Below the pieces are notes generated by a model that saw nothing but the letters and a program-made list of their open reading frames with translations, ran no database searches and had not been told where the DNA came from. This document shows positions 20,575-52,803 of a stretch of 57,362 bases of DNA, piece by piece. Position numbers and translations under genes: made by a program. Positions within the stretch are counted from its first letter, which is position 1. The number at the start of each line of letters is the position of its first letter. Location: the sequence record SRR31156797_3941. One strand, written 5' to 3'.

Positions 20575-22431
20575 ATGAACAAAGTCATATCTCTTCTCCG
20601 TTCCAGATTTCTTTTCGCATCCCCGTGGCTGCTCACTGCCGCAGCGGGTTTGCTCATCGTTATTGTTGTCACGTTTGCTTTTCATAATCTAAGACTTGAA
20701 AAACGATTGATGACTAATGCCATGCTCCAAAAAGGAGCCACCTTAATTAAGGCAGTACAGTCTGGGGCGAGGGCATCATATGTATCTGATATAAGGAGAA
20801 ATTTCTGGGAAAGCGATTCATGGTACAGTCATGTACAAAAAGTGATAGATCACCTCATTGAAGACCCGGACATACTTGTAATTACCCTCATGGATGATCA
20901 AGGAAAAATTATTGCCCATAATGATAAAGGACAAGTTGGCACCACCCTGTCAGTTCCCTCTTTCACAAATAACCCTCCACAAATTAATGATGGTTCAAAA
21001 CTTTATTACTCCATTGTCACTGATAAAAGAAAAAAACGCATTTTTAAAACAACACGTGTTTTAAAACCTTTTGTGCCCAAACATGCGCGTCTATCAATGA
21101 CTATGAAACATTCAGGCCATCGTAATTTTTTCATGGACAGAAACAAACGAAGCATGGGGCCGCCCATTATCAATAGGGCACCTGGGGAGAGTGATCTCAA
21201 TAAACCTTTTTTCATTGTTGTCGGTTTGGACATGACAGAATATGACCATACTCTAGGGCGCCTCAGGGTACAGATTTTTATCCTTTCTTTAGCCATGCTT
21301 TTGGTTGGGCTGGCTGGCTGGTTTTCGCTGTCTGTAGTGCAAGGGTACAGAGTTTCGCAAGCAACACTCAATGAAATACAGGCATTTACCACCTTGCTCA
21401 TAACATCGCTCCCAGTTGGTATAATTGCGACAAACCAATCCGGTCGAATTGCAACATGGAACCAGGCGATAGAAAAAATAACCGGTATAAAAGAATCAGA
21501 TGCTGTTGGTAAGATTCCCAGGGAAATACTACATGAAGAATTAGCAGCATTTTTCAGTGATAAAACGCCGAGACCGTCTGCCTCTGCAGACGAAAGAGAG
21601 ATTCAAATTGCTTTTGCAGGCGACATGTACGTCCTCCTTTGCCGCTTGATTCAGATATTTGATAGAGAGCAAAAATATGTGGGTGATGTCCTGCTTGTAT
21701 CAGACATCTCAAAGGTAAAACAGCTAGAACAAAAGATGCGTGAAAGTGAAAAACTAGCAGCCATAGGTAAAATGGCAGGTGGTGTTGCACATGAGGTAAG
21801 AAACCCACTAAGCTCAATTAAGGGGTTGGCTCTCTTACTGAAAAACAAGTTCGTTGCTGGAAGTAAAGAATGTGATACCGCGCAGCTCCTGATCCAGGAA
21901 ACTGAACGTATGAACAGGACTATCACTGAAATGCTTAGTTTTTCGCGGCCGACTTCACTCTGCCTACAAACTGTTGATGTCCATCGGCTGTTGGAAAAAG
22001 AAATAGAGTTAATACAAACAGAAACGCTTGAAAATGATGTTGAGGTGTCACTTGCCGTAACGGAAAACCTTAAGCACGTTAAAGGTGACAAGGACAGGCT
22101 AACCCAATTATTCATGAATATTTTGCTCAACAGTATACAGGCAATGCCTGAAGGGGGAGCAATAACTATTGAAGCTGAAAACAGCGGGTCAGGTGATTTT
22201 GTACAGCTCACAATCTCAGATACCGGAATAGGTATGGAAGAAAGTGTGCTTTCCCAGGCGTTCTATCCTTACTTTACAACTAAACAACAGGGGACAGGAA
22301 TTGGGCTTGCTATTTCGCAAAAAATTATTTTAGACCATAACGGCTCTATTGCCATAGCAAGTAAACCTGGGAAAGGTACGGTTGTTACCGTGCAGTTACC
22401 ATCAGTTGATGGTCCTGATGTTACTGCTTAG
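20575..22431 (+). CDS. Membrane sensor histidine kinase, ZraS/HydH-like, with PAS domain
   Basis: Two TM helices, a PAS domain, H-box AHEVRNPLSSIKG, N-box NILLNSIQA, DTGIG and GTGIGL. Confidence 0.9.
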   Translation: MNKVISLLRSRFLFASPWLLTAAAGLLIVIVVTFAFHNLRLEKRLMTNAMLQKGATLIKAVQSGARASYVSDIRRNFWESDSWYSHVQKVIDHLIEDPDILVITLMDDQGKIIAHNDKGQVGTTLSVPSFTNNPPQINDGSKLYYSIVTDKRKKRIFKTTRVLKPFVPKHARLSMTMKHSGHRNFFMDRNKRSMGPPIINRAPGESDLNKPFFIVVGLDMTEYDHTLGRLRVQIFILSLAMLLVGLAGWFSLSVVQGYRVSQATLNEIQAFTTLLITSLPVGIIATNQSGRIATWNQAIEKITGIKESDAVGKIPREILHEELAAFFSDKTPRPSASADEREIQIAFAGDMYVLLCRLIQIFDREQKYVGDVLLVSDISKVKQLEQKMRESEKLAAIGKMAGGVAHEVRNPLSSIKGLALLLKNKFVAGSKECDTAQLLIQETERMNRTITEMLSFSRPTSLCLQTVDVHRLLEKEIELIQTETLENDVEVSLAVTENLKHVKGDKDRLTQLFMNILLNSIQAMPEGGAITIEAENSGSGDFVQLTISDTGIGMEESVLSQAFYPYFTTKQQGTGIGLAISQKIILDHNGSIAIASKPGKGTVVTVQLPSVDGPDVTA

Positions 22432-24546: not shown

Positions 24547-25053
24547 GTGTCATTAGCTAACCCCATAACCACACAACCAGTTACGCTCAAGCAATTGAAG
24601 TTTTTTGCTGAAAAGCTATCATCTCTGTTTGAAGCAGGGGATACGCTTTTGCTGGAAGGGGGACTAGGTGCAGGCAAGACTACTCTAGTACAGCTCATCG
24701 CCAACAACCTTGAAATTGGAGATGATCAATATGTCTCCAGCCCATCATTTTCCCTGCTGCATGAATATTCAGGAACTCTCCAGGTATTTCATATGGACCT
24801 CTATCGACTTACAGGCGAAGATGATGTCGAGGCTGCAGGGTTACTGGATTATTTAGCGCACCAGGGCCTCTGTCTCATTGAATGGCCGGAAAGACTTGGA
24901 GCTGCAAAACCAAACAACTATCTCCAGATAGAAATTGGTATCCCTGACAGTGAGCATCGTACGCTCACCCTCAGTGCCTGTGGATCAAGGTGGAAGCAGC
25001 GTCTCAAGAGCCTTGCCCTCCTCGTCGACCATGTAAACGAACACGTTTTATAA
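24547..25053 (+). CDS. tsaE: tRNA threonylcarbamoyladenosine biosynthesis ATPase TsaE
   Basis: LEGGLGAGKTT, VSSPSFSL, HMDLYRL and LIEWPE. Confidence 0.94.
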   Translation: MSLANPITTQPVTLKQLKFFAEKLSSLFEAGDTLLLEGGLGAGKTTLVQLIANNLEIGDDQYVSSPSFSLLHEYSGTLQVFHMDLYRLTGEDDVEAAGLLDYLAHQGLCLIEWPERLGAAKPNNYLQIEIGIPDSEHRTLTLSACGSRWKQRLKSLALLVDHVNEHVL

Positions 25054-26267
25054 TGGATATTTACCTGGCCCGACAACCAATTTTTAATCGTAAAAAACAA
25101 CTCTATGGCTACGAAATTTTATACAGGGGAGACGTCAATAACTATTTCCCACAAAAAATAGACGGGGAAGTCGCAACCAGTACTGTAGTTGCCCATGCGT
25201 TGTTTAATATCGGTCTGGAAGGCTTAACAAGTGGTAAAAAAGCTCTGATTAATTTTACCGAAAAACATCTTTTGGCGGGCACTCCATCCCAGCTGCCAAA
25301 AGAGAGATGCATAGTTGAAATCCTGGAAGAAGTAACGCCTACCAGTTCTATATTGGATGCCTGCCGAGACCTGAAGAAGGCAGGATACAGACTGGCTTTG
25401 GACGATTACATTTTTGACAAAGCCCATGCACCTCTGCTAGACGTTGTGGATATTGTCAAAGTAGATTGCCAAGCCCTTTCTCTTGGCGAAATTCAAGATA
25501 ACTTCAAACACTTTCGAGCTGGTCGTTCCTTTGAGCTGATTGCGGAAAAGATTGAGACCCATCAGGAATTTGCGCAATGCCATGATATGGGGTTTGATTA
25601 TTTTCAGGGCTTTTTCTTCAGTAAACCTGAAATAATAAAAAAGCAAAAACTCGATATAAGCAAGGTTACGCTTTTGGGACTCATTGCTGAGGTGAATCGT
25701 ACTGATTTCAGTTTTTCCCGAGTAGAAAAAATGATTACCGCAGATGTTGCTCTCTCTTATAAACTGCTTCGTTATATAAACTCAGCGTACTATTCACTGG
25801 TGTCCAAAGTCAAATCAATTCGTCATGCCCTGACCTATCTGGGAGAATCCGGAGCCCGTCAATTTGTTTGCCTGGCAGTTGCGTCTGAATTAGCGGTACA
25901 GAAGACGCCTGAACTGACAAAGGTTTCCATTATTCGAGCTCAGTTGTGTAAATTACTTGCCCAAAAAGGCGACGGAGGGTATGACGAATCACAGGCTTTT
26001 TTGGTAGGACTGTTTTCCATGCTTGATGCCATGTTGGACATCTCCATGCAGGAACTCATAATTAAAATTCCACTTGCTCAAGATCTTACCCATGCCCTCA
26101 ATGAGAGAAAAGGGCCTCTGGCGCATTTTTTGCTCGCTGTAGAAGCCTATGAACAGGGTAAGATTGACATTTGTGAACAAGAGTTGGCCTTGGTCGGTGT
26201 GACTCCTGAAGAAATGGTCAGTTCATATTTTGAAGCACTCCGGTGGGCAGACCTTTTAAACGATTAA
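25053..26267 (+). CDS. EAL and HDOD domain protein (YuxH/PdeH-like c-di-GMP phosphodiesterase)
   Basis: ARQPI, GYEILYR, LALDDY, AEKIET and FQGFFF, followed by HDOD LSYKLLRYINSA and FLVGLFSMLDA; TAATG coupling to tsaE. Confidence 0.9.
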   Translation: MDIYLARQPIFNRKKQLYGYEILYRGDVNNYFPQKIDGEVATSTVVAHALFNIGLEGLTSGKKALINFTEKHLLAGTPSQLPKERCIVEILEEVTPTSSILDACRDLKKAGYRLALDDYIFDKAHAPLLDVVDIVKVDCQALSLGEIQDNFKHFRAGRSFELIAEKIETHQEFAQCHDMGFDYFQGFFFSKPEIIKKQKLDISKVTLLGLIAEVNRTDFSFSRVEKMITADVALSYKLLRYINSAYYSLVSKVKSIRHALTYLGESGARQFVCLAVASELAVQKTPELTKVSIIRAQLCKLLAQKGDGGYDESQAFLVGLFSMLDAMLDISMQELIIKIPLAQDLTHALNERKGPLAHFLLAVEAYEQGKIDICEQELALVGVTPEEMVSSYFEALRWADLLND

Positions 26268-29802: not shown

Positions 29803-30240
29803 TTAACGTTTGTTCAGGCGCGCAAGACTATCTATAAATTCAGCACCCACTCGCATCCCTGCCAAGCTTCTCAGTCGAATTTTCCGTTGAATAGCAGCCC
29901 CTGAAGCTGAACGATATTTTAGAGTTAGTTCCTGGCCAATACGCATCCTTCTCGTCTGTCCTGCCCTGACATTAAAACCGATACCCGCAAGAGAAACATC
30001 ACAGAGCCGCACCCGCAATTCGTTATGGGGTCCGATAGTTACTATTGCATGACCACTTAAGGACTCACGCACGAAACCGCGGTGGTTAAGTATATAACTA
30101 GTAACTTTTCCGCATTTACAGCGAACTGGTTTACGGCGCGATGAAGAGGAAACAGGCACATACCTGATAGATTTACAACGGCTGCAAACAACTCGAATCC
30201 GGCCGCCTTTAACATCACAATTTTGCGTTCTTCCTGCCAT
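29803..30240 (-). CDS. Zn-ribbon plus PilZ domain protein (putative c-di-GMP effector)
   Basis: CSRC...RCKCG, then RGFVR (RxxxR), DVSLAG (DxSxxG) and VGAEF; RBS GAGGA. Confidence 0.8.
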   Translation of the reverse strand: MAGRTQNCDVKGGRIRVVCSRCKSIRYVPVSSSSRRKPVRCKCGKVTSYILNHRGFVRESLSGHAIVTIGPHNELRVRLCDVSLAGIGFNVRAGQTRRMRIGQELTLKYRSASGAAIQRKIRLRSLAGMRVGAEFIDSLARLNKR

Positions 30241-30389
30241 AGTATCCTCGTGTGAGACAGTCGCTGGTGGCACAATAATACCAAAGCTGCTTTTTTACAT
30301 ACAGCCAGCTCTCTAGCGGATCTGTTTTAAAAGTATACCAGACCAATTATAAGCTGGAAATATATTCGACTATAGTATTTAATTATAAT

Positions 30390-30616: not shown

Positions 30617-30768
30617 GTGTAACATTTATTTTTTTACGGTAACCTTGGCCTCATCAATTCATGTTTGGCTCACATTACGTCGGTAGTATTTCCAGTCAGG
30701 TTGCGGAACCTATGAGCGGCTGACCGCGCCTGTTCTATCTGAAACTCACTTCCCTAAGGAGGATATTC

Positions 30769-33690
30769 ATGCCACCTGAGAAGGATGTTCGAGTCTGGCG
30801 ACCTTTTTTTATCCGTATCATTCTGCCTTCTCTTTTGGCAATTGCTCTTTTTGCATCAGTTATATTTATGCTGATCATTCCATCTTTGGAACGTTCAATG
30901 ATGGCGGGAAAAAGAGAGACGATAAAAGAACTCTCCTTTGCCGCCTGGTCCATTGTCAACAAAGCTGCAAGGCAGGAGCAGGAAGGGCGGTTAGGCAGAG
31001 AAGAGGCACAGAAACAGGCCCTGCAATACATTCAGTTTCTCAGATATGGAGAGGAAATCAAGGATTATTTTTGGGTTATGGACCTGACTCCCAAAATGCT
31101 CATGCACCCATATAGAGCTGATCTGATCGGTCAAGAGCTGCAGACATTCAGAGACCAGGAGGGAAGGCACCTTTTTGCAGAATTTGTCGATGTTGCAAAA
31201 ACTAATGGGGACGGCTACATCCGATATTTATGGGAGGACAAAAACGACTCAAGTAAAACGGTTCCTAAATTATCCTATGTCAAACTTTTTAAACCATGGG
31301 GTTGGATTATCGGCACCGGCATTTATCTTGAGGATGTTCATGGGGAAATCAGAGCCCTTACCAGTCGACTCCTCATCATATCCCTCACCATAACCGGTAT
31401 CATCGCGGCATTGCTCTTCTTTATAACTAGAGAGAGCATGAAAATAGAGGCCAAACGCCAGGAAAATGAGCATCGGCTGCGCCAGGCCGGTGAAAAGTAT
31501 AAGTCTCTTGTAGATGCCTCCACAGAAGGTGTCATGATGATCATAAAAAAGGAAATTGCCTATGCCAATAAAATTCTGGAAGACATCAGCGGTTATACTG
31601 AAGACGAAATGATGAGCATGGCCTTGGCTGATTTTATCTCCCTGCTGCCTTCTGTGGAAAATCCACTCAGCCAGGTCGATGATATTTTGAACCTGGAAGT
31701 ACAGGCACAATTTGAAGCGCTGTTCCACCACAAGACCGGCTCTACCTTTGACATACTTCTTTCCCTGTCACCAATGGAAATAGGGGGGCAGCAAGGTATT
31801 ATCCTGGTCATTAAAGACATCAGTACTCAAAAACAAATTGATGGCGAGCTTGGCGCAAGCAGGAAAAAATTTGAACATTTGACAGATAATATAAGTGTCG
31901 GCGTTTTTCGCACAACATTTGATGACAACGAGGTATTTGTTGAAGCCAATCCTGCTACAGCCCAAATTTTTGGGGTCAAATCCACTGAAAAGCTTTTCTC
32001 TTTAAAAGTAAAAGATATTTTCAGCAGCCATTCCCAGTACCAGTTTTTCAAACAAACGTTACGTGCCAAAGGGGCGGTCAAAGATATGGTAATAGAGCAC
32101 CGGCGGTCAGACGGTGAATTAACAGCACTCTCTTTAACAGCTGTTCTGGTGAAAAATGCAAGAGGGTCGCTCGCCTATTGTGATGGCTTTGTCGAGGATA
32201 TAACAAAACGCCACAAACGTGAGCAGGAGAGGGAGGGGTTGATCAGTGAACTCCAGGCAAGCCTGCTCTTTCAAAACGAGCCAATTCATAGGGCATATTC
32301 TGTTGCCATACCAACCTGCACGTTGTCCACAACCATCGAGCTTGCCGCCCGCTTTATGACACATGCCGGTTCGAGTGCAATCCTGGTTAAACCCGATGCT
32401 GATAACGACCCTATTGGCATTGTTACTGATAACGATATCCGCGAACGGATGATTGCGGGGAGTATTAGCAGTAAGACTCCTGTTTCGGCCATAATGAGTG
32501 CACCTCTAATAGGTATATCAGGCGATGCGTTAATTTTTGAAGGTATTGTAAAAATGCTCGAGAAAAACGTTGATCACCTTCTGATTCGTGACCCGCAGGG
32601 TGAATATTTTAAGGTTATCAGTGCGAAAAACCTCTTAAAAAACCAACAGTATATCCTTACCAAGCTGATAAGTGATATCGACAGGGTTGAATCACCGTTG
32701 CAGCTTACTTCACTTAGAGACCAGCTGCCTCTGTTGGTGCAGCGCCTTTTTGAAAGCAGTCCTGATGCACGTAACTTGACCCGAATAATTTCTGCCGTTG
32801 CTGAAGCAGTCATGACAAAATGCCTCTCTCTGGCCATAGAGGAGCTTGGACCTCCCCCATGTAAATATGCTTTTTTGGCCCTTGGCAGTGTTGGTCGAGA
32901 GGAGCAAACCCTTGTTACTGACCAGGATAATGCCATTGTCTATGAAAATATTGCTCCTGAGATGGAAGAGGAAGCTGCATCGTATTTCCATAGTATGGGG
33001 GACAAGGTATGTACTTGGCTCGATGATGCAGGTTATGCGCTCTGCAAGGGAGATATCATGGCCAAAAACCCGAAGTGGTGTCAACCTGTCCATATCTGGC
33101 AGGAATATTTTCAGACATGGGTATCAGCCATGGAACCCGCTGATTTACTGGACACTAAAATATTTTTTGATTTCCGCTGGGTACACGGTGACGTGCAGCT
33201 TGTTAGCGATTTGCGGATTTTTCTCAATGAACTCACCGCTAAAAAGCCGCTCTTTTTTTATCATCTCGCCCAAAATTGTCTTCAATCCAAGCCGCCGTTA
33301 AATTTATTTAAAAACATTGTGGTCGAATCCAGCGGTGCACATCGGGAGATGTTCAGTATCAAAAAGGCCATGACCCCGTTGGTTGATTACACACGGATAT
33401 ATGCACTTCGACATGGAATCTTCCAAACCAACACCTTTGCGCGTTTTAATCAGCTGCAGGCAAAAGGCCATCTCAGCAAAAAAGAAAGCCAGGAGCTGAC
33501 CCTCGTCTACAAATATTTACTTGAGCTGCGGTTCAAACATCAAATTCTCGCACTTGGAGCAGGAAATACGCCTGATAATTACATAAACCCAAAACAAGTC
33601 ACCGAAATGGAGCAGGTGTTACTCAGGGAAGCGCTTTCCCAGGTTGCAGATTTTCAGACCAAGATGAGTTTTGATTTTAAGGCGGTATAA
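30769..33690 (+). CDS. Membrane sensor: sCache_2 - PAS - PAS - CBS pair - DUF294 nucleotidyltransferase - DUF294_C
   Basis: TM helix, Cache (DYFWVMD..MLMHPY, KLSYVKLFKPWGWIIGTGIY), second TM, two PAS domains, CBS (GIVTDNDIR, VSAIMSAPL), NTase LGSVGREEQTLVTDQDNA and IFFDFR. Confidence 0.88.
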   Translation: MPPEKDVRVWRPFFIRIILPSLLAIALFASVIFMLIIPSLERSMMAGKRETIKELSFAAWSIVNKAARQEQEGRLGREEAQKQALQYIQFLRYGEEIKDYFWVMDLTPKMLMHPYRADLIGQELQTFRDQEGRHLFAEFVDVAKTNGDGYIRYLWEDKNDSSKTVPKLSYVKLFKPWGWIIGTGIYLEDVHGEIRALTSRLLIISLTITGIIAALLFFITRESMKIEAKRQENEHRLRQAGEKYKSLVDASTEGVMMIIKKEIAYANKILEDISGYTEDEMMSMALADFISLLPSVENPLSQVDDILNLEVQAQFEALFHHKTGSTFDILLSLSPMEIGGQQGIILVIKDISTQKQIDGELGASRKKFEHLTDNISVGVFRTTFDDNEVFVEANPATAQIFGVKSTEKLFSLKVKDIFSSHSQYQFFKQTLRAKGAVKDMVIEHRRSDGELTALSLTAVLVKNARGSLAYCDGFVEDITKRHKREQEREGLISELQASLLFQNEPIHRAYSVAIPTCTLSTTIELAARFMTHAGSSAILVKPDADNDPIGIVTDNDIRERMIAGSISSKTPVSAIMSAPLIGISGDALIFEGIVKMLEKNVDHLLIRDPQGEYFKVISAKNLLKNQQYILTKLISDIDRVESPLQLTSLRDQLPLLVQRLFESSPDARNLTRIISAVAEAVMTKCLSLAIEELGPPPCKYAFLALGSVGREEQTLVTDQDNAIVYENIAPEMEEEAASYFHSMGDKVCTWLDDAGYALCKGDIMAKNPKWCQPVHIWQEYFQTWVSAMEPADLLDTKIFFDFRWVHGDVQLVSDLRIFLNELTAKKPLFFYHLAQNCLQSKPPLNLFKNIVVESSGAHREMFSIKKAMTPLVDYTRIYALRHGIFQTNTFARFNQLQAKGHLSKKESQELTLVYKYLLELRFKHQILALGAGNTPDNYINPKQVTEMEQVLLREALSQVADFQTKMSFDFKAV

Positions 33691-33947: not shown

Positions 33948-34460
33948 ATGAGAGAACATTCAAATAAAGATAAATTACTGGCAGAGATGAGTAATAATTT
34001 TAGGAAACTAGGTCTTGAACTCGATACTCTTCCACCGGTTCTTTTAGACGATGCATCAATTCGCACTAATGTAGATGGCTTATTGGTAAATGTTTGCCAG
34101 CTCGTCGTTCATGCAGCCGGATGGACAGAACTCGCATTGAAATGGCTCAACAAACAGCAGGCGGGGGAGATAGTAGCCCATCCGCAAATGGGTTATAGCT
34201 GGGGCGAACTAAACGACCTTTCGAAATCATTTTATGACGAATATACAGCGACACCCTTCAAAGAGGCCCGTGCCAGATTCAAGAACAGTAATATCTTCCT
34301 TATTGATAAGATCGCAGATAGCGATGCAGCAACCCTTTTCGGCCCCCTTCTACATGACAACTTTACAATGGGGGGCATGATTCACCGCTATATCTCAGAA
34401 CTATACGCCCAAGATCACTACCAGATACGAGCTTGGAAAAAGGGCCTTGGCTGGGTTTAA
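33948..34460 (+). CDS. ClbS/DfsB (DUF1706) family four-helix-bundle protein
   Basis: NKDKLL..., LVVHAAGW.L.LKW, P..GYSWGELNDLSKSFYDEY and C-terminal IRAWKK match the family pattern. Confidence 0.75.
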   Translation: MREHSNKDKLLAEMSNNFRKLGLELDTLPPVLLDDASIRTNVDGLLVNVCQLVVHAAGWTELALKWLNKQQAGEIVAHPQMGYSWGELNDLSKSFYDEYTATPFKEARARFKNSNIFLIDKIADSDAATLFGPLLHDNFTMGGMIHRYISELYAQDHYQIRAWKKGLGWV

Positions 34461-34584
34461 TGATAAAGCCATTTTTCGGCTACTCTTTTTTATTGGCAGT
34501 GCGAATCTAGAATCCGAGATTAATCACCCCCAGTTACTATTGAGTGCAGAGTCTGACACAGTGAACGTCACAGCAAAGTAGTGC

Positions 34585-34605
34585 TTGCTTGCGTCGGCCA
34601 CGGCG
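34585..34605 (+). repeat. 21-bp direct repeat, copy 1
   Basis: TTGCTTGCGTCGGCCACGGCG, 20/21 identical to 35482-35502. Confidence 0.8.
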
Positions 34606-34648
34606 TTTATCACGTCGCTATTATATTTACAAAGAAAAAGGTACCGCA

Positions 34649-35329
34649 ATGTCCACACAAGTAGTTTTTGATAAGTATGCGTCCCAATATGATGATTCAC
34701 GGGAGAAACTAATCCCTTGCTTTAATGATTTTTATAAAATTTCGATTGAAGCGATCCCGTTTAACAAAGAAAAGAATATTGATGTTTTAGATCTTGGTGC
34801 TGGTACCGGTTTGATGGCAGGGTTGGTAGCTTCAAACTATCCCAACTCCAAAATTCATTTAATTGATATTGCCGAAAAAATGTTGTCTGAGGCCAGACAA
34901 AAACTGAAATGTTTCAAAAATGAATTCGATTTTATTATTTCCAATTATTCAAAGGCAGATTCTTTTTCTCAGGATTACGATTTAATCATTTCGTCTCTTT
35001 CAATTCATCATCTGGCGGCGATAGAAAAACAGCGACTGTTTAAAACAATATATTCACATCTTAAGTCAGGTGGCATCTTTATAAATGCTGACCAAGTCTT
35101 GGGTGATACAGAAGAAATAGAGAAAATCTATCGAAGTAAATGGATAGAGCAAGTCACGGAAAGAGGAGCCAATCCTGAAGAACTTAATGCGGCACTTGAA
35201 AGGATGAAAGAGGATAAAATGTCTACCCTGTCCTCACAAATGAAGTGGTTAAAGGAAGCTGGTTTCATAAATGTTAATTGTTGGTTTAAGCACTATAGCT
35301 TTGTCATCTTTAGTGGAATAAAGAGTTGA
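34649..35329 (+). CDS. Class I SAM-dependent methyltransferase (CmoA-like/Methyltransf_25)
   Basis: VLDLGAGTG, YDLIISSLSIHHL and LKSGGIFINADQ; ATG at 34649. Confidence 0.9.
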   Translation: MSTQVVFDKYASQYDDSREKLIPCFNDFYKISIEAIPFNKEKNIDVLDLGAGTGLMAGLVASNYPNSKIHLIDIAEKMLSEARQKLKCFKNEFDFIISNYSKADSFSQDYDLIISSLSIHHLAAIEKQRLFKTIYSHLKSGGIFINADQVLGDTEEIEKIYRSKWIEQVTERGANPEELNAALERMKEDKMSTLSSQMKWLKEAGFINVNCWFKHYSFVIFSGIKS

Positions 35330-35481
35330 CATATATCATACCACAAGTCACTGCAAGGGACCGGAGGGCAACGCGATTTTCCTAAGTTCTGCCATGTTTC
35401 CGAAAACAATTCAATCAAAGCTCAGTGCTGCAAAACTCCACCGGGCCAGAGCTAAGACGATCTTGCTGACTTAATCAAGCT

Positions 35482-35502
35482 TTGCTTGCGTTGGCCACGG
35501 CG
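35482..35502 (+). repeat. 21-bp direct repeat, copy 2, enclosed by a TGCTGAC/GTCAGCA stem
   Basis: TTGCTTGCGTTGGCCACGGCG. Confidence 0.8.
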
Positions 35503-35546
35503 CGGGTCAGCATCGATAACCACTTTTCAAAGCGTCATTGAAGAAT

Positions 35547-35927
35547 TTAATATTGACTCCAATAGCTATCATCGTCATGGATATTCTTACATGGTTCACA
35601 GATAGGAAGTAAATCAGTTACGATTTGCTCTTCTGAGAGCGCATTCTGGACTTCCGCAATCACCTGCTAACGTTCTTTTTCCACCATTTTTCTTTGGTCA
35701 ACTTCACGGACTAATGAGTGTCGTGACGTTATTGGAGCCTGAAAAATTTCAGCCACATTGCTGGAAGATTGTTCCATTGAGCCTCTCTCGTCACTTGAAT
35801 GGTCTGTTGAGCGAGTATCGAGTGCTCCTTTATTACTGGTCAGTGTCGCTTTAATTCCTGCATTGGAACGATGACCTGGCAGATCGACATTAATTATCTG
35901 CTGCCAGGATAAGTGTAGAGGCAGCAT
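35547..35927 (-). pseudogene. Decayed fragment of a signal-transduction gene with an LPICxxCKxIxDDxxYW C-terminal domain
   Basis: Reading through the TAG at 35667-35669 gives EVDQRKMVEKER*QVIAEVQNALSEEQIVTDLLPICEPCKNIHDDDSYWSQY*. The 5' limit is uncertain. Confidence 0.7.
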
Positions 35928-36421
35928 ATAATACCAAGCATGTTAAGCTCGGATCCTGAACTGATCATAGCGTAATGCATTCGGCATTATATGCTTTGAT
36001 CATTTCCAGAACGCCTTCTGGCTGTAGCATGTGTGAGGGGCCTTCTTTTGTCCAGCTTATCAAATGAGTACAGTCGGCACTAAAATTTAATTGCACTTTA
36101 GTAGTCAGGCATGGGAGATATCAGGGTTGACTCCCGCCATGTATTGACAGGTAAGATTGCCGAAAGAAACCATAGAACACAGTAAAATAACGAAATAATA
36201 GAGGTGGTACCACGATATAATATTGAGTAAATGGTATAAGATCGCGATAGTGATAGGGTGAAAAAGTTTAGTGGCTGGTGTGGTCGCGGTTTTAACTCAG
36301 AGCCATGTGTTTAGCATAAATTTAACAAAGGCCACTGAGCAAAACCTGCGCTATAGTTTGCAAAAAAAAACCACCGATCCTGCTTTGGGAGCAGGCCTGT
36401 ACCTTCTTTCCAGGGAGACAG

Positions 36422-37201
36422 ATGAGATTAAAAGGAAAAATTATAAAGTGGCAAAACGATAAAGGGTTCGGGTTCATTAAACCAATTAATGCGATGCCTG
36501 ATTTATTTTTTCACGAGAACTTTCTGCTCAACCAATCCAGAAGACCTGTTGCCGGAGACCAAGTCTCTTTTGAAATAACTACAAACCCAGAGGGCAAACA
36601 AAGGGCGGAGAGGATTTTGTTTCGAGGGGAACGGGATCCGAGGAAAAGAGGTGCGTTTTTTGACGCTGTTTACTCGAGCTTGTCCTGCGCATTTTTAATT
36701 TGTATTGGTGTTCTGGTTTATTTTAAAAATTTGAACCAGGTTATCTTAATCCTGTATTTGTTGTTAAGCCTCACCACATTTTTACTGTATCGGCAGGATA
36801 AGATTAAAGCAAAAAATGATGAATGGAGAACGCCGGAAAAGAAACTCCATTTTTTTAGTTTAATTGGAGGGTGGCCAGGTGCACTGATTGCACAAAGACG
36901 GCTCCGCCACAAATCAAGAAAGCAATCATTTCTGGTGGTGTTTTATATCACCGTTATCCTCAACATTGCTGCCGTTTCGTTTTACTCGTATTCAGGATCG
37001 AATTTGATAATCTACGATTTCTCTATTCATAAATTCAATCAGCTTGCAGAAAAATTCTTTAAAAAAAGTCAAGACAAGCCTAACCAAAAACAAAAAGGAC
37101 CGGTTTACAGTTGGACAAACAAAAAAGGTAAAACTGTTTTTTCAAATATTGGTTTTCCGCTCGATGAAACTTACCGTGACGGAAAAATTGAGTGGAAATG
37201 A
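36422..37201 (+). CDS. Cold-shock domain plus DUF1294 membrane protein with a short DUF4124-like C-terminus
   Basis: KGKIIKWQNDKGFGFI; DK..AK..EWRTPEKKLHFFSLIGGWPGALIAQRRLRHKSRK; VYSWTNKKGKTVFSN. Confidence 0.85.
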   Translation: MRLKGKIIKWQNDKGFGFIKPINAMPDLFFHENFLLNQSRRPVAGDQVSFEITTNPEGKQRAERILFRGERDPRKRGAFFDAVYSSLSCAFLICIGVLVYFKNLNQVILILYLLLSLTTFLLYRQDKIKAKNDEWRTPEKKLHFFSLIGGWPGALIAQRRLRHKSRKQSFLVVFYITVILNIAAVSFYSYSGSNLIIYDFSIHKFNQLAEKFFKKSQDKPNQKQKGPVYSWTNKKGKTVFSNIGFPLDETYRDGKIEWK

Positions 37202-37264
37202 TGAAAATTGGATAAACAATAAACATATAATTACAAAAGCTTAGAAGGTTAAAGGAGGGGAGGG

Positions 37265-37852
37265 ATGAGACAGTATTGCACCATGTTTTTTACTTATGCT
37301 GTGGTTGCACTTGTGGTTTCCAGCTGCGGGTATAACGCTTTGCAACTCAAGGAGGAAGCGGTTTTTAAAGCGTGGGCAGATATTGAATCCAACCTGCAGC
37401 GCCGTGCCGATTTGATTCCAAACCTGGTTGAAACGGTCAAAGGATATGCCAAGCATGAGACAGAGACTCTGGAAGCCGTTATCAGTGCACGTGCTCAAGC
37501 AACTTCTGTGCAGATTCGTCCTGAAGATTTAGGCAATGCAGCTACTATGAAACAGTTGCAGGCTGCCCAGGGAAAGTTATCTTCTGCACTTTCCAGACTG
37601 ATGGTGGTGGTGGAGAGATATCCTGATCTCAAAGCGAGCCAAAACTTTCTTGACCTGCAAAACCAACTGGAAGGAACTGAAAATAGAATAAATGTTGCCC
37701 GGCAGCGTTACAATCAGGCAGTAGAAATATTTAATGGTGCTATCAGGAAATTTCCAGAGCAGTTAACCAATGATATTGTTCTCCATTTGGAAAGAAAAGA
37801 GTATTTCAAAGCAGAAGCAACGGCTAAAGATGTTCCCAAGATAACATTTTAG
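37265..37852 (+). CDS. lemA: LemA family lipoprotein
   Basis: [36 protein letters not shown] and [13 protein letters not shown]. Confidence 0.95.
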
Positions 37853-37861
37853 TAAAATATC

Positions 37862-38764
37862 ATGCGCCTGTTGAAATTTCGTAACGCCTCTATAACTGTT
37901 TTTATTGTTGCAGTGTGGAGCCTCCTTTTTTCTCTCCAGGTGGAGGCTCTCACTGTCCCTGAGTTAGAGGGGTATGTCAACGATACTGCGAGTATCTTGT
38001 CTGTCGGCACAAGGCAACTGTTGGAACAGCAGTTGCACCAAGTTGCTGCCCAGGACTCGACCCAAATTATAGTACTCACCATCGGCTCCCTTGGTAATGA
38101 AGATATTGAACAGTATTCTCTAGAAGTCGCAGAAACATGGGCCATAGGAGAACAACAGTTTGATAACGGGGTATTGCTGCTTATTGCTGCAAAGGATAGG
38201 AAAATCCGTATCGAAACCGGATATGGCGTTGAAGGGGTACTGACCGACCTGGTTGCCGGACGGATCATCCGTAATATAATTGTCCCCGAGTTCAGGAAAA
38301 AACAATTTGACCAAGGGGTTATCAACGGGGTTGGCGCAATAATAGAGTCGGTTAAAGGGGAATTTGATATTGCCTCTTTGGAAAAACCAACTCAAAGCCC
38401 TGATCCAGGAGGCTGGATCATAGCCTCTCTGTTTGGCTTCTTTTTTGTCGGCATTACTCTTCAAAAGAAACGAAAAATCGCTTCTGCCGCAGGCGGTCTC
38501 TACGGGTTGGTCCTTGCGCTAGTGGCGCCATTCATCAATACCATTGGCATGATTTTGCTTGTAGCAGTTGTCGGTATGATAGGCGGAGCCATTGCCAGTA
38601 CGGTGATTGTTAAAAGAGGTCGCAGTGGTCGAAAGGGGACAGGGGGCATATTCCCTGGAACTCTTGGCGATAATAATAGCCGAGGCGGCTTTGGTACCGG
38701 CAGTGAGGGATTTGGTGGTGGCGGTGGTGGATTCGGCGGCGGCGGAGCTTCAGGAGATTGGTAA
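37862..38764 (+). CDS. TPM-domain (YgcG-like) membrane protein
   Basis: YVNDTA, DNGVLLLIA, RIETGYGVEGVLTD and a GGGFGGGGASGDW tail. Confidence 0.92.
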   Translation: MRLLKFRNASITVFIVAVWSLLFSLQVEALTVPELEGYVNDTASILSVGTRQLLEQQLHQVAAQDSTQIIVLTIGSLGNEDIEQYSLEVAETWAIGEQQFDNGVLLLIAAKDRKIRIETGYGVEGVLTDLVAGRIIRNIIVPEFRKKQFDQGVINGVGAIIESVKGEFDIASLEKPTQSPDPGGWIIASLFGFFFVGITLQKKRKIASAAGGLYGLVLALVAPFINTIGMILLVAVVGMIGGAIASTVIVKRGRSGRKGTGGIFPGTLGDNNSRGGFGTGSEGFGGGGGGFGGGGASGDW

Positions 38765-38768
38765 TGAC

Positions 38769-39452
38769 ATGACACACGCACAGCGTTTTCTTAATGCAGA
38801 CGAACAGGAACAAGTTAGGCAGTGTGTACAGCGGGCAGAACAGCAGACTTCCGGTGAAATTGTTCCTATGATTGTTTCAGCAAGTCATCCGTACCCAGCG
38901 GCTGCATTGCTTGGCGGATCTGTTCTTGCCTTTTTGTCTGCAATAGTTGTTACTCAGGTACTGGGTCATACCCTGTGGCTGGGCAGCAATCTCCTTTGGG
39001 TCTTTTTAGGTCTGTTTTTCGTATTTTATCCATTAGGCACCTTTCTGGTTAACCGCGTTCCCTCAATTAAAAAGTTTTTTATAGCCGACGATCACAAGGA
39101 AATGGAGGTCCAGCGTGGTGCATTTACCAGTTTTTATGAGAAAAATCTTCATGAAACCAAGGATGCAAATGGGGTACTCATCTATGTATCAGTCCTTGAA
39201 CACAAAGTCTGGATACTGGGTGATCAACAGGTTAACCAAAAGGTGGATTCGGGAACATGGCAAGAAATAGTTGATGAGCTGACCAACGGCATCCAGCAAA
39301 ATAAACAGGGGGAATCGTTTTGCCACGCTATAGAGAGGGTTGCGCTGATCTTAAAAGAACACTTTCCTTTGCAGGCTGACGATACCAATGAACTGCGGGA
39401 TCTAATTATTAGAGGGGACAGACATAGTTGTCACCAATTAGTGGTCCGCTAG
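38769..39452 (+). CDS. TPM-domain membrane protein (third gene of the lemA-TPM-TPM operon)
   Basis: AEQQTSGEIV, GVLIYVSVLEHKVWILGD and HFP...DDTNEL; ATG at 38769. Confidence 0.88.
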   Translation: MTHAQRFLNADEQEQVRQCVQRAEQQTSGEIVPMIVSASHPYPAAALLGGSVLAFLSAIVVTQVLGHTLWLGSNLLWVFLGLFFVFYPLGTFLVNRVPSIKKFFIADDHKEMEVQRGAFTSFYEKNLHETKDANGVLIYVSVLEHKVWILGDQQVNQKVDSGTWQEIVDELTNGIQQNKQGESFCHAIERVALILKEHFPLQADDTNELRDLIIRGDRHSCHQLVVR

Positions 39453-47909: not shown

Positions 47910-50222
47910 GTGTTTATGTTTGATAAAAAAAAGAAAAGGGCCATTCGCTCCATACTTTGGTTCGCGCTTGTTCCGATATTGTTTTTATCGGTAATGGGCA
48001 GTGTCTGGCTTGGATCGAGATACTATGTAATAAATAAGGCTGAAAACGATATTCAGACGATGCTGCTCCAACACAAGGGAGTTCATCACTATGTTCAACG
48101 TTTAGCCCATCCTGAGCTTTACGCCCTGAAGCGTGATCGTAAAATATCTGAATCTTTGTATACTCCGATCCTTTTCTCGTCATCTTACATGGTGAGAAAT
48201 ACTCATGATTTTTATAATGAAGAAAGAAAAAAACTTGGGCTTTCAGAGCTTTATTATAAAATGGCAGCTGAAAATCCAAGAAACCCAATAAATAAAGCTG
48301 ACGAGTTTGAATCAGATTTGATTCGAATGTTTAACAAAAAAGATGCGCCTAAAAGCTTCAGAAAGCTGGTGGAGAAAAATGGAACCAAATACCTCTATGT
48401 TGCAATCCCTTTTTTGCCAAATGAACAACGTTGTCTGAAGTGCCATGGGAGATACGAGGAAGCTCCAGCTCAACTGCAGGAAAGTTACTTAGAAAAAGGG
48501 GGGTTTGATGAAAAAGTTGGCTATATCCGTGCAATAGAGTCTTTAAGAGCACCCCTTGATGGTGAGCTAACTATTGCTTACATTGCTCTTATCTCTGTAT
48601 CCGTTGTGTGCGGCGTTATTTTTTTGCTTCTTCTGGTAAACCGTCGACTAGACTCCCTGGTAATAGAACGCACCCAGCTTATTGAGGAACAGGCTTCAGC
48701 GCTCAAGGAAAGCGAGGAAAACCTTGCTATTACTCTTAATTCCATCGGAGATGCTGTTATAGCTACCGATGAATATTGTAATATTACGTTAATGAATCCA
48801 GTTGCTGAAGAATTGACCGGTTATTCCTTTGCTTCCGCAAAAGGAAAACACTTGCAAACTGTTTTTAATATTGCCAATTCGAAGAATGTTGAGACAGTTG
48901 ATAATCCTGCCCAACACATACTGGACACAGGAAAGCCTGTTGAGTTCCAGGACAACTTACTTGTAGCCCAAAATGGTACTGAGCGGGTCGTCTCCAACAG
49001 TGGTGCTCCTATTCATAATGCTGAGGGTATTATTGTCGGTATGGTGCTGGTGTTTAAAGATGTCACCCGGGAAAAACAGGTAGAAGAACATCTGCGTCAA
49101 GCAGAGAAAATGACAGCTGTAGGGCAGTTGGCCGGTGGGGTCGCCCATGATTTCAACAACATGCTTGGGGGTATTTCTGGGGCGGCTGAGTTGCTTGAAA
49201 TGACGGTTTCCAACAATCCGCAGGCAATGAAATACATCGATATGATTAAAAATGCCACGGAGCGCACCTCTGGCTTAACACATAAATTATTGGCATTCAG
49301 TAGAAAGGGGAAATTAGTTTCTACACCAGTTGATGTCCACACCATTATAATGGATGCTGTTTCTATTCTTGAACGGAGCATTGACAAAAGGATCACTATC
49401 ACGACAAATCTTAAGGCTGAGTTGTCAATGGTTGTTGGCGATCCCTCCCAACTGCAAAACGGGTTTCTCAACCTTTTTGTTAACGCTAGAGATGCTATGC
49501 CCGAAGGGGGAGAGCTGTTCATTGCAACTGTTAACACCTTCTTTGATGAGGATTATTGCCTGGTAGACTCTACTCTTTTTGGTAACACCTTTATCCATAT
49601 TTCAGTTCAGGATACAGGGAGCGGCATTCCTGCAGAAGTTCAATCGCATATTTTTGAACCATTTTTTACTACCAAAGAGATCGGTAAAGGAACCGGTCTT
49701 GGACTTGCTGCTGTCTACGGTATGATTCAGGAGCATCATGGCAATATCCGTTTGTACAGTGAGCCAGAAAAAGGAACGGTATTTAATATTTACCTTCCCG
49801 TGTCATCAGAAAACTCATCACTGAAAAGCCAGGAAAAGGAACAGAAGCATTATGGTAATGGTACCATCTTGTTAATTGATGATGAGGAGATTATCAGAAC
49901 AACAGGAGCCCAATTGCTGGTGCACCTGGGGTATAATGTCATGCTCGCAGAAAATGGTGCTAAAGGCGTTGCTGCTTACCAGGAAAACATAGATAAAATA
50001 GATCTCGTTATTATTGATATTGTTATGCCTGTCATGAATGGCAAGGAAGCATTTGATCGCATAGTAAGCCTTGACCCCAAGGCGAAAGTGATAATGTCTT
50101 CTGGGTTTGCCAGGGATATTAAAATGGCTGATATGGAGAAAAAAGGATTAAGCGGGTTTATAATGAAGCCCTTCAATCAGTTCCAACTCAGCAAGCTTGT
50201 TGCAGAAGTAATAGAATTATGA
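47910..50222 (+). CDS. Hybrid sensor histidine kinase: c-type heme DUF3365-like periplasmic domain, PAS, HisKA/HATPase, receiver
   Basis: TM helix, NPRNPINKADEFE, CLKCH, second TM, PAS, AHDFNNML, GTGLGL and receiver LIDDE..DIVMP..KPF. Start is 47910 or 47916. Confidence 0.9.
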   Translation: MFMFDKKKKRAIRSILWFALVPILFLSVMGSVWLGSRYYVINKAENDIQTMLLQHKGVHHYVQRLAHPELYALKRDRKISESLYTPILFSSSYMVRNTHDFYNEERKKLGLSELYYKMAAENPRNPINKADEFESDLIRMFNKKDAPKSFRKLVEKNGTKYLYVAIPFLPNEQRCLKCHGRYEEAPAQLQESYLEKGGFDEKVGYIRAIESLRAPLDGELTIAYIALISVSVVCGVIFLLLLVNRRLDSLVIERTQLIEEQASALKESEENLAITLNSIGDAVIATDEYCNITLMNPVAEELTGYSFASAKGKHLQTVFNIANSKNVETVDNPAQHILDTGKPVEFQDNLLVAQNGTERVVSNSGAPIHNAEGIIVGMVLVFKDVTREKQVEEHLRQAEKMTAVGQLAGGVAHDFNNMLGGISGAAELLEMTVSNNPQAMKYIDMIKNATERTSGLTHKLLAFSRKGKLVSTPVDVHTIIMDAVSILERSIDKRITITTNLKAELSMVVGDPSQLQNGFLNLFVNARDAMPEGGELFIATVNTFFDEDYCLVDSTLFGNTFIHISVQDTGSGIPAEVQSHIFEPFFTTKEIGKGTGLGLAAVYGMIQEHHGNIRLYSEPEKGTVFNIYLPVSSENSSLKSQEKEQKHYGNGTILLIDDEEIIRTTGAQLLVHLGYNVMLAENGAKGVAAYQENIDKIDLVIIDIVMPVMNGKEAFDRIVSLDPKAKVIMSSGFARDIKMADMEKKGLSGFIMKPFNQFQLSKLVAEVIEL

Positions 50223-50235: not shown

Positions 50236-51394
50236 TTGTTGGATTATATAATGATCGAAACTGCCGTTAATTGGAAACAGGTAGCTGAACGCGAAACCCA
50301 ACTAAAGCTTAATGCTCAAGCAGGACTTGAGGAAATGCGGCGTTTTTTGTTCGATTATTTTTATCTCTTAGGGCCTGATCCCAAAGCAAACATGTCGATA
50401 GTCGTGGATACACTTGGCAAGGTTCTTGGCTCAACTGTTGCTCTTTATAATCGTATGGATTCCGGCGTGCTTAAAACGTGGTGCATAGACCATGAGCCAG
50501 ATGGGCTTCGGCGGGAAGATTCACCAGATGGTCATATTTGTTATGACATGACCATACGTCAGCGAGACCGCTCCAATATAGCACCTGTAGTGCTAAACGA
50601 TCTCGAAGGTTCAGTGGGAAAAGCTTGATACAAATGTGGCTGAATACGGGCTGAAATTGTATTTGGGTTTTCCTATTCTGGTTGAAGAGGAAGTGGTCGG
50701 TTCACTATGCGTAGTAGATACAGAGAAACGGACTTTTACAGAAGTTGAAATTTACTTCATCGAGGCATTTGCCTCGGCTATTCGCCTTGAAGAAGAACGT
50801 CTCTTACCCCAGACCCGTTTGGCGTCCGCCAATGAGACCCTCAAAATTAAAAATGAGGCAATTGAAACACTTGCTCTTACAGATCAATTGACGGGGTTGC
50901 CCAACCGGCGAGCAATTATTCAAAACATAAAGGATACTCTTGCAATACTGCACCGAAGGTTATTTCGTGCTGAGAAAGCACAAGGGTTAAAGGGCTTTTC
51001 TCTAGCTTTGTGCGATATCGATCATTTTAAAGTAATAAACGATACGTATGGGCACAACCGTGGCGATGAGGTATTGAAAGCAGTGGCAAAAAAATTGTCC
51101 AGCCTTTTACGTGCTAAAGATGCGGTAGCGCGGTGGGGTGGAGAGGAGTTTCTCATAATCTTTCCTGAAACGGATATGACGACTACCGTGGCTATTGCCG
51201 AGCGGTTACGGAAAGCTATTTCAGAAATCCCTTTCTCACATAACGGGCAAACATTTCGAGTCACCTTAACACTGGGCGTCACAACCTGCGACACAGCAGA
51301 CATGGATTTGGATGCTTGTGTCCATTTTGCTGACATGGCTCTTTATGCGGGAAAAGAAAAAGGGCGCAACTGTGTTATGTCGACAATAGATTAA
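50236..51394 (+). pseudogene. GAF-GGDEF diguanylate cyclase split by a frameshift near 50614
   Basis: First frame ends ..LNDLEGS; the +1 frame continues WEKLDTNVAEYGLKLYLGFPI (GAF), then TDQLTGLPNRR, DIDHFK..ND.YGH and RWGGEEF. Confidence 0.75.
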
Positions 51395-51504: not shown

Positions 51505-52803
51505 TCAAACTTTTTCCAGTATCTCACGACTTCGTTTTACAGCACAAAGATCGCCGCACATGGTGCACACATCCTTGTCGATAGGTTGGGAAGAAGCACG
51601 GTAAGCACGAGCCTTTTCAGGATCAATGGCGAGATCAAACATCTTTTCCCAGTCCAGTTCTTTGCGAGCATGGCTCATCTTGTTATCCCAGTCAATGGCA
51701 TTGGGAATACCTTTGGCTACGTCTGCTGCATGAGCAGCAATACGGGTGGCAATAATTCCCTGCTTCATGTCGTCTTCATCCGGCAGGCGAAGGTGTTCTG
51801 CGGGGGTGACATAGCAGAGAAAATCAGCACCAGATGCGGCTGCCAGTGCGCCACCAATTGCAGAGGTGATATGGTCATAGCCGGGCGCAACATCCGTAAC
51901 AATGGGTCCAAGCACGTAAAATGGTGCTCCATGACAAAGTTTCTTCTCTATCTGCATATTTGAAACCACCTCGTTGAGCGGCACATGGCCCGGTCCTTCG
52001 ATCATGACCTGAACGTCGGCCTCCCAGGATCGTTTGGTCAGCTCACCCAGTACAATCAACTCTTGGATCTGAGCAGCATCAGTGGCATCGTTCAAGCTGC
52101 CCGGGCGCAGTCCGTCACCAAGGCTAAGTGTCACATCGTACTGTCTACACATTTCAAGCAAGCGATCATAATGCTCAAAAAAGGGATTCTCAGCATCATT
52201 GACATCCATCCAGTGGAGCAGTAGTGAGCCGCCACGGCTGACTACGTGAGTGAGGCGAGGGTTGTTTTTCAGTCGCTCGACAGCAGTGCGGTTCAGTCCG
52301 GCATGGATGGTTAAAAAATCGACTCCGTCTTCCGCATGCATTTTGACAACATTAAAAAAATCATCAACTGTGATAGCTCCAACATTTTTACCATAGCGGG
52401 CAACGGCATCATATACCGGTACAGTACCAATCATAGCTGGACAAACTTCCACAGTTCTTTTGCGAAAGGTCTGGGTATCGCCAAAGGTACTTAAATCCAT
52501 AATGGCATCTGCCTTGAGTTCCACCGAACGACGAACCTTCGTAAGCTCTTTCTCTACGTTGCAGCAGTCCTCGGATACACCAAGATTAACGTTAACCTTA
52601 GTCCGTAGGCCACTGCCAATACCACAGCCAACGAGGTTGGTATGATTCACATTTGCGGGTATGACAATATGGCCGTTGGCTATTTTGGTTAAAAGATCAG
52701 TTTCTGCTATGACTTCACTTGCAAGCACGTCCTGCATCTGTTTGGTGACAATGCCCTGCCGTGCTGCGTCCATCTGGGTTGTATATGTGGTCACTTTATT
52801 CAC
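51505..52803 (-). CDS. thiC: Phosphomethylpyrimidine synthase
   Basis: [48 protein letters not shown] and CTMCGDLC. Confidence 0.97.

Follow-up and report, generated by a model that had tools for sequence, protein, structure and literature searches.

A transmembrane Cache-type receptor with a DUF294 nucleotidyltransferase as output, and the phosphoesterases linked to its relatives

The stretch of DNA analyzed here, 57,362 nucleotides (nt) of sequence record SRR31156797_3941 and referred to below as the window, carries on its plus strand an open reading frame (ORF; 30769..33690) that starts with ATG and encodes 973 amino acids (aa) plus a stop codon. Its product is a transmembrane (TM) receptor of the one-component type with a nucleotidyltransferase (NTase) as output, in which an sCache_2 sensor domain is joined through two PAS domains, a helix, and a CBS pair to a DUF294 NTase and a C-terminal DUF294_C domain. 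A ribosome-binding site, AAGGAGG (30756..30762), lies 6 nt 5' of the start codon. All features of the receptor gene are on the plus strand, and residue numbers are those of the 973-aa ORF.

Architecture of the receptor

The order TM-sCache_2-TM-PAS-PAS-linker-CBS-NTase had been proposed in a preliminary description of the gene, and all of its domains are recovered by Pfam hidden Markov models (HMMs), with the TM segments being recognized by hydrophobicity. TM1 (hydrophobic residues 9-43; 30793..30897) reaches a Kyte-Doolittle mean of up to 2.68 over 19 residues, and TM2 (hydrophobic residues about 194-222; 31351..31434) a mean of up to 2.77. The two segments flank the sCache_2 domain, predicted to be periplasmic (residues 44-194; 30898..31350), which scores 135.2 bits with PF17200 at a gathering score of 25 (E 2.3e-39). 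PAS domains are found in two stretches, PAS 1 comprising residues 242-352 (31492..31824; Pfam PAS/PAS_9 and TIGR00229, PAS_9 E 7e-18) and PAS 2 residues 367-482 (31867..32214; Pfam PAS_8/PAS_4). In an AlphaFold model of residues 484-973, the postulated linker between PAS 2 and the CBS pair is a helix (residues 485-502, helix 2-19 of the model; 32221..32274). The CBS pair, or Bateman module (residues about 514-628; 32308..32652), is located directly N-terminal to the NTase; Pfam detects it as two stretches with 42.3 bits at a cut-off of 24 (E 1e-10), and CBS proteins of the PDB match it by sequence as well as by fold. The DUF294 NTase itself occupies residues 652-790 (32722..33138) and scores 156.3 bits with PF03445 (gathering score 21; E 5.6e-46). 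The helical domain expected at the C-terminus is DUF294_C (PF10335) at residues 828-970 (33250..33678), with 143.5 bits at a gathering score of 22.5 (E 5.2e-42), so that every domain of the receptor lies above its curated Pfam cut-off.

None of the outputs that are classical for transducers (histidine kinase, methyl-accepting chemotaxis protein (MCP) domain, GGDEF/EAL, cyclase, Ser/Thr kinase) was detected in the receptor with Pfam and NCBIfam. As had been noted for kinase, GGDEF, and MCP domains, Pfam finds no kinase, MCP, GGDEF, or EAL family in it even at E <= 1, and the NCBIfam models for kinases, MCPs, and cyclases align with no more than the sensor or PAS regions, with scores far under their cut-offs. 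PF00027, the domain binding cyclic nucleoside monophosphates (cNMP), is equally absent at E <= 1 in Pfam.

Catalytic residues, sensor pocket, and distribution

The catalytic motif LGSVGREEQTLVTDQD (residues 705-720; 32881..32928) contains G706-S707 and D718-x-D720. Neither these residues nor D801 (codon at 33169..33171) vary among the diverse full-length relatives compared (38/38), and their counterparts are likewise unchanged in all 33 relatives compared that carry an additional N-terminal PHP domain (see below). The spacing of the motif, with 11 residues between G706 and D718-Q-D720, conforms to G-x11-[DE]-x-[DE], the catalytic motif of NTases of the GlnE/GlnD/DrrA type, and D801 is a candidate for the third catalytic carboxylate, a role that we presume from the pol-beta NTase fold. 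The GS...DxD motif that had been read as intact is therefore found as such, and its invariance would speak against an inactive NTase.

The AlphaFold model of residues 484-973, based on a 50-sequence alignment, has a mean predicted local distance difference test (pLDDT) score of 86 and a predicted template modelling (pTM) score of 0.74. When it was compared with the PDB by Foldseek, the best match was GlnE (1v4a; E 8e-9 over 408 columns), followed by GlnE 3k7d (E 5e-8) and the AMPylation domain of DrrA (6yx5_B; E 6.5e-8, TM-score 0.65 on the target). GlnE, with both halves of the E. coli enzyme, and DrrA are the only listed Foldseek matches that span the NTase and helical domains, the rest matching the CBS pair. 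They thus provide the nearest solved folds for this part of the receptor and share its G-x11-D-x-D spacing. A sequence search of the PDB gave no match to the NTase part, and no GlnD model is among the NCBIfam matches listed for the receptor. GlnE and GlnD are writer/eraser systems under metabolic control. The receptor differs from them and from DrrA in not being an orthologue, in being membrane-anchored and, as predicted, ligand-gated, and in that the putative eraser belongs to another enzyme class. The likeness to GlnE and DrrA, as judged from the model, is best understood as a family-level resemblance and not as orthology. In line with the relatedness to GlnD and GlnE that had been stated for DUF294 proteins, a HEPN survey places DUF294_C together with the helical domains at the C-termini of GlnD and GlnE (PMC3710099), suggesting that the receptor carries a helical domain of the same type.

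On the input side, a phmmer search of the PDB relates the Cache domain to Adeh_3718 with bound acetate (4k08, E 2.5e-34) and to PscD with bound propionate (5g4y/5g4z, E 4e-33). PscD is reported to bind glycolate, acetate, propionate, and pyruvate, and seven of its residues, Y90, W92, H103, F126, Y143, W145, and K156, contact propionate (PMC5062169). In the phmmer alignment these correspond to Y100, W102, H113, F136, Y153, W155, and K167 of the receptor, an identity of seven out of seven which includes the hydrophobic residues held to limit ligand size (PMC5062169), and each of the seven is conserved in 38/38 of the relatives. The organic-acid input proposed earlier can on this basis be narrowed to the C2/C3 class, and the receptor probably responds to acetate, propionate, or pyruvate-type acids outside the cell. 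The PscD study itself points out that identical pockets may differ in affinity, and it asks for experimental verification (PMC5062169). Because identity of the pocket can mask differences in affinity, the ligand class is to be taken as a strong prediction and not as a result. The predicted ligand would make physiological sense, since the electron donors listed for Desulfogranum mediterraneum, which has a colinear orthologue, include propionate, pyruvate, and lactate (PMC9751629, Table 1).

Close relatives of the sensor domain are found in PscD, McpP, Adeh_3718, and MctS (E 1e-33 to 1e-34), with which the receptor also shares the TM-Cache-TM topology. In contrast, the outputs of these proteins are MCP signalling domains or histidine kinases, whereas that of the receptor is an NTase; the receptor has a sensor of the PscD type, yet it is no chemoreceptor. 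Its partial matches to the NCBIfam models of the MctS kinase (87 bits, cut-off 700) and the CtpM chemoreceptor (67 bits, cut-off 900) are confined to the sensor part.

Receptors of this type are widespread. A word-seeded search through 5.8 billion proteins, in which 8000 candidates were scored, gave 3539 matches at E <= 1e-3. PF03445 is present in all of the 120 listed and PF17200 in 119 of them, the exception (P0051) being a protein of 809 aa. The lengths of the listed relatives cluster at 965-1000 aa, identities range from 91% down to 40%, and the source names include Desulfogranum, Ignavibacteriae, Bacteroidetes, Aminicenantes, Phycisphaerae, Deferrimicrobia, and others. Full-length colinear orthologues are encoded by the isolates Desulfogranum marinum DSM 2058 (86% identity) and D. 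mediterraneum DSM 13871 (72%) as well as by metagenome-assembled genomes (MAGs). The window accordingly derives from a Desulfogranum-like representative of the Desulfobulbaceae. The fusion is real and not an assembly chimera, a concern raised in the preliminary description, and it is conserved across phyla. In the ESM Atlas, Cache-plus-DUF294 cluster representatives measure 976 aa (120 members), 867 aa (120), 952 aa (64), 689 aa (53), and 1261 aa (314). The architecture described earlier thus stands, but its implied rarity does not, as several large clusters and many phyla are involved. Databases name this family by its domains alone.

Among 487 records of a plasmid collection, there is no full-length Cache-type receptor (>=80% of the query covered). 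The loci L006-L008 and L010-L013 were dropped as sources of relatives, their similarity being confined to the Cache or PAS part; L006, the only one of them scanned with Pfam, encodes a histidine kinase with a LuxR-type regulator. In the literature searched, which leaves out supplementary files and subscription journals, neither a Cache-linked DUF294 receptor nor its fusions to PHP or Metallophos domains were found described, and a paper on the Cache superfamily (PMC4822843) does not contain the word 'nucleotidyltransferase'.

Phosphoesterases and genomic context

Seven of the 120 listed relatives, with lengths of 1190-1240 aa, carry a PHP domain at their N-terminus. From TM1 onward, these database entries show the same domain order as the window receptor and about 41-44% identity over 99-100% of its length; they differ from it by the additional PHP domain, which is about 230-270 residues long and has its metal site intact, whereas only 12 residues precede TM1 in the window receptor. 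Since the PHP domain is N-terminal, ahead of TM1, it would lie on the cytoplasmic side, like the NTase. When the PHP region was used as query, all 32 matches among proteins of 680-2167 aa were PHP-Cache-DUF294 fusions, which together with six others from the 120 listed relatives amounts to at least 38 PHP-fused clusters. The metal ligands of the PHP domain are invariant in 33 out of 33. A shorter fused form of about 961-974 aa is devoid of the CBS pair and of one PAS domain. The nearest models for the PHP domain, which is of the TrpH type, are those of 3',5'-nucleoside bisphosphate phosphatase and of RNase RNM (RNase AM-like), and the nearest PDB entries are 3e0f/3o0f, 2yb1/2yb4, 9etk, and 7ug9, the last of these entered in the PDB as a 5'-3' exoribonuclease. 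The fused domain shares 38-46% identity with five stand-alone PHP proteins (259-297 aa); the next ones reach at most 34% and, where named, are called TrpH or pAp phosphatase. The best stand-alone PHP protein (P0303, 265 aa) and a PHP-less receptor of 971 aa (P0041) both have ena as their source and a longest contig of 6017 bases, and they may be neighbours on one contig. A complex prediction of a fused PHP domain with the CBS-NTase part of the same protein, made without controls, scored 0.00 against a mark of 0.32 and is evidence neither way.

A second phosphoesterase is met in an Ignavibacteriales locus (L009) that encodes a receptor of 34% identity. There, 10 bp separate the end of a Metallophos gene from the receptor gene, and genes for a DUF485 protein and an ActP-like symporter (747 bits at an ActP cut-off of 750) follow directly downstream. 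The receptor gene of this locus is frameshifted at about 8363-8381, within the Cache domain, which may reflect a long-read assembly error or a pseudogene; both pieces retain the pocket residues. The Metallophos family is compact, with 121 representatives at E <= 1e-30 that mostly measure 245-262 aa and have conserved metal-binding motifs. The structure modelled for the L009 protein (pLDDT 95) most resembles 3rqz; SapH, an Ap4A hydrolase/phosphodiesterase, comes next, and MJ0936, YfcE, and lambda phosphatase rank lower. Among 150 listed Metallophos relatives, two (P0248 and P0301) continue with a TM segment plus an sCache_2 domain, at 44-45% identity to the N-terminus of the receptor, P0248 being colinear with receptor residues 5-267. 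Both are truncated proteins and a read-through artefact is possible, although at least same-strand adjacency is indicated. No Metallophos fusion of receptor length is among the 150, and the plasmid collection holds no Metallophos protein of the L009 type.

The association with PHP or Metallophos enzymes in Cache-type relatives seems to parallel that of DEDDh exonucleases with the genes for cytoplasmic DUF294 proteins (COG2905). With the CBS-NTase half of the receptor as query, 67 plasmid records were found at 28-35% identity over about 450 residues, and 11 annotated loci from 11 species among them were used for a census of partners. An exonuclease is encoded within two genes of the DUF294 gene in 10/11 loci (RNase_T was confirmed in all four exonucleases scanned), a sodium:solute symporter directly upstream in 8/11, seven of these with DUF4212, and acs is present in two. 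The partners named earlier as usual for the family, symporter and DEDDh exonuclease, are therefore encountered, and so is its cytoplasmic form, since the three DUF294 proteins scanned all read cNMP-CBS-DUF294-DUF294_C. They have the CBS pair, DUF294, and DUF294_C in common with the window receptor, and by implication of the family the catalytic motif; both types are also linked to transport and use of monocarboxylates. However, they possess a cytoplasmic cNMP-binding domain where the receptor has TM-sCache_2-TM-PAS-PAS, and a DEDDh exonuclease and symporter adjoin their genes and not that of the receptor, the partners of the Cache type being PHP or Metallophos enzymes. By the models, the receptor is a member of the DUF294 family that lacks two features typical of COG2905, the cNMP domain and the adjacent exonuclease/symporter.

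Published data on the cytoplasmic form come mainly from Pseudomonas. In P. putida KT2440, pp_0354 (NTase) and pp_0353 (exonuclease) form an operon that is bound directly by ErdR; deletion of pp_0353 impairs growth on pyruvate and deletion of pp_0354 does not (PMC9927547). The homologues of P. aeruginosa PAO1 adjoin actP and yjcH (PMC9927547), and the PA3232-PA3235 cluster is up about 16-fold on propionate (PMC9765439). A 2026 preprint describes moderate defects on propionate and pyruvate and calls for further protein-chemical work (10.64898/2026.09.07.749794), and fitness data tie COG2905 to a DUF4212 symporter (10.1101/072470).

In 7 of the 11 plasmid loci, all from Alphaproteobacteria, the DUF294 gene is immediately followed by one for a small hypothetical protein (L015 6416-6997, L016 6370-6888, L018 6370-6867, with counterparts in L019, L020, L022, and L023). 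The three translated products have 165-193 aa, belong to no Pfam family, and show mutual homology (E 1e-8 to 1e-18); such a protein might supply a third component of the system, or it might itself be the acceptor. Neither the window nor L009 encodes a relative of it. The Paracoccus and Marivivens loci have a gene for a single-domain response regulator (L018 6867-7238; L020 5898-6278) between that small gene and the gene for a long exonuclease, which in Paracoccus, when translated, has 659 aa and an N-terminal extension of about 450 residues without a Pfam family.

Within the window, the receptor gene stands alone, with gaps of 495 bp upstream and 257 bp downstream. The upstream gap has no Rfam match, and a scan for promoters and terminators remained at background (11 sites, 9.3 expected). 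Divergently from the receptor, a PilZ-like gene is located on the minus strand (29803-30273; 21.9 bits, slightly short of the 22.5 that Pfam requires). It is kept together with the upstream backbone in the related loci L002 (26.8 bits) and L004 (24.3 bits), and in L003 the upstream ORF is an HlyD-type fragment instead; the PilZ-like gene was rejected as a partner, and its position probably reflects synteny and not partnership. Farther upstream are genes for HAD, heptosyltransferase, YcaO-TPR, and EAL-HDOD proteins. Downstream, on the plus strand, follow genes for DUF1706, a methyltransferase, CSD-DUF1294, LemA, and two TPM proteins (33948-39452), and this side varies among relatives, the first named gene being TPM in L002 and L004 and LemA with two ORFs in L003. 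The window is rich in signalling genes, which include those for a PAS histidine kinase (20575-22431), an EAL-HDOD protein (24990-26267), a Tll0287-like hybrid histidine kinase (47910-50222), and a GAF-GGDEF protein (50636-51394). Its only Rfam match is a thiamine pyrophosphate (TPP) riboswitch (RF00059; 56235-56333, minus strand; 74.1 bits at a cut-off of 54.3), after which a minus-strand thiamine operon encodes ThiG (55179-55949), a radical-SAM/BATS protein (54022-55158), ThiF (53483-54037), thiamine monophosphate synthase (52855-53505), and ThiC (51505-52803).

A putative nucleotidylation switch and its alternatives

We propose, tentatively and well short of certainty, that the receptor drives a writer of reversible nucleotidylation in response to carboxylates, with a protein as acceptor, and thereby acts on the uptake or assimilation of these acids. 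In this chain, the periplasmic sCache_2 domain would bind a C2/C3 monocarboxylate of the acetate, propionate, pyruvate, glycolate, and lactate class, and the signal would pass from TM2 through the two PAS domains and the helical linker to the CBS pair, where PAS and CBS domains may add intracellular cues, which for CBS might include the energy state suggested in the preliminary description. It would then set the activity of the GlnE/DrrA-like NTase, which would move a nucleoside monophosphate (NMP) from a nucleoside triphosphate onto a hydroxyl of the acceptor. A protein is favoured in this role, because every characterized member of the structural neighbourhood modifies a protein and because of the kinship in fold and domains. 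A nucleotide-directed phosphoesterase would remove the mark, namely a PHP or Metallophos enzyme that is fused or encoded next door, or the DEDDh exonuclease in cytoplasmic systems. That three unrelated phosphoesterases (DEDDh, TrpH-type PHP, and SapH-like Metallophos) accompany one NTase family, fused to it or encoded beside it, is most simply explained by a writer and an eraser acting on one NMP-bearing product. The stronger effect of losing pp_0353 than of losing pp_0354 would fit harm from an unopposed writer. A role in carboxylate uptake or assimilation would agree with the DUF485 and ActP-like genes of L009, with the symporters and acs of the cytoplasmic loci, and with the Pseudomonas data. 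The linkage to phosphoesterases is what the present analysis mainly adds; the architecture was already present in databases.

Several observations weigh against this reading. In fold, the resemblance to GlnE and DrrA is moderate, with TM-scores of 0.47-0.65 and identities of 12-14%, and the GlnE model NF010707 scores only 17.9 bits at an NCBIfam cut-off of 625. The nearest characterized relatives of the partners (RNase T-type enzymes, pAp phosphatase/exoribonuclease, and Ap4A hydrolase) act on nucleotides or oligonucleotides and not on modified proteins. For distant Cache-type relatives, the genomic context is that of one locus, L009, with its frameshifted receptor. Among the cytoplasmic systems, the contexts of two Vibrio loci and those of Hymenobacter and Salinivibrio concern sugars or uronates and not short-chain acids, and in P. 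putida neither deletion matters on acetate and the phenotypes are mild (PMC9927547). Measured activities, ligands, or acceptors were not found for any DUF294 protein in the searchable literature. Near the receptor gene itself, there is no eraser, symporter, or acs, either in the window or in four close relatives; Pfam finds no symporter, exonuclease, PHP, or Metallophos protein among the 49 ORFs of the window, tblastn with seven queries (PHP, Metallophos, three DEDDh, DUF485, and ActP) gave nothing there (best E 0.67), and the same queries gave nothing in L001-L005 at E <= 0.01. The earlier statement that the usual partner genes are missing beside the gene thus extends to the whole window, although the Cache subfamily is not devoid of partners, as some relatives have fused or adjacent PHP or Metallophos enzymes and one locus has DUF485-ActP. 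If the proposed chain operates, eraser and target of the window receptor must lie elsewhere than within these 57 kb, or be missing.

The same receptor and input could also serve an NTase that makes a nucleotide messenger, such as a linear or cyclic oligonucleotide or a dinucleoside polyphosphate, or that tails the 3' end of RNA, with the phosphoesterase degrading the product. Messenger synthases do occur among NTases of the pol-beta fold, and nucleotide-messenger systems as a rule combine a synthase and a hydrolase on one receptor (GGDEF-EAL). What makes this alternative attractive is that the nearest characterized members of all three partner families, RNase_T/DEDDh, PHP, and SapH-like Metallophos, hydrolyze nucleotides or short oligonucleotides. 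However, no messenger synthase or RNA-tailing enzyme is among the listed Foldseek matches, where the NTase finds GlnE and DrrA only, no effector or receptor of a messenger is evident beside any locus examined, and DUF294_C groups with the helical domains of GlnD and GlnE in the HEPN survey (PMC3710099); on balance we regard it as unlikely, though worth keeping in mind. Distinctly improbable is that the Cache domain senses a ligand outside the C2/C3 class and that the link to short-chain acids in this lineage is coincidental, an idea that could be combined with any of the others. The caution of the PscD study that identical pockets can have different affinities (PMC5062169), the occurrence of cytoplasmic DUF294 modules in sugar and uronate loci, and the lack of a carboxylate transporter near the window gene would allow it, but it has to be set against the identity of all seven contact residues, size-limiting hydrophobic ones included, their invariance in 38/38 relatives, and the adjacency of DUF485-ActP in L009, the sole distant relative with context. 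Finally, the NTase might not be a writer at all, acting in the removal direction by phosphorolysis like N-terminal GlnE or serving as a nucleotide-binding regulator, so that receptors without PHP would need no eraser. The best fold match, 1v4a, is indeed the N-terminal domain of E. coli GlnE, which we take to carry the adenylyl-removing activity, and no fused phosphoesterase is present in 113 of the 120 listed relatives and none is encoded near the window gene or its four close relatives. On the other hand, 3k7d, the second-best match with an almost equal score, is the adenylylating half of GlnE, the full transferase signature invariant in 38/38 relatives and 33/33 PHP-fused forms speaks against a non-catalytic role, and an NTase that writes would most simply account for a fused or neighbouring hydrolase; we consider such a role very improbable.

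If the receptor does drive reversible nucleotidylation, Cache-DUF294 proteins might represent an unrecognized, phylum-spanning class of receptors in which ligand-gated nucleotidylation with interchangeable erasers would tune carboxylate uptake or assimilation post-translationally, much as GlnD-PII-AmtB does for ammonium, with writer and eraser residing on one polypeptide in some members. This wider proposal is more doubtful than the chain outlined for the single receptor. DUF294 is, to our knowledge, a large and decades-old family of predicted signalling NTases without a known reaction, and the genetics found for it amount to mild growth phenotypes in Pseudomonas. The Cache-linked form makes the question of its function testable, as it offers a predicted external trigger, a defined motif, and, in relatives, a built-in candidate eraser. 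Should the reaction be protein nucleotidylation, it would be a new type of output for bacterial transmembrane signalling and a new layer of control on the uptake of short-chain fatty acids in anaerobes that live on such acids; should it yield a nucleotide messenger, a new messenger system would be at hand. Either outcome would explain why an NTase-exonuclease pair is encoded beside carboxylate symporters in many Proteobacteria.

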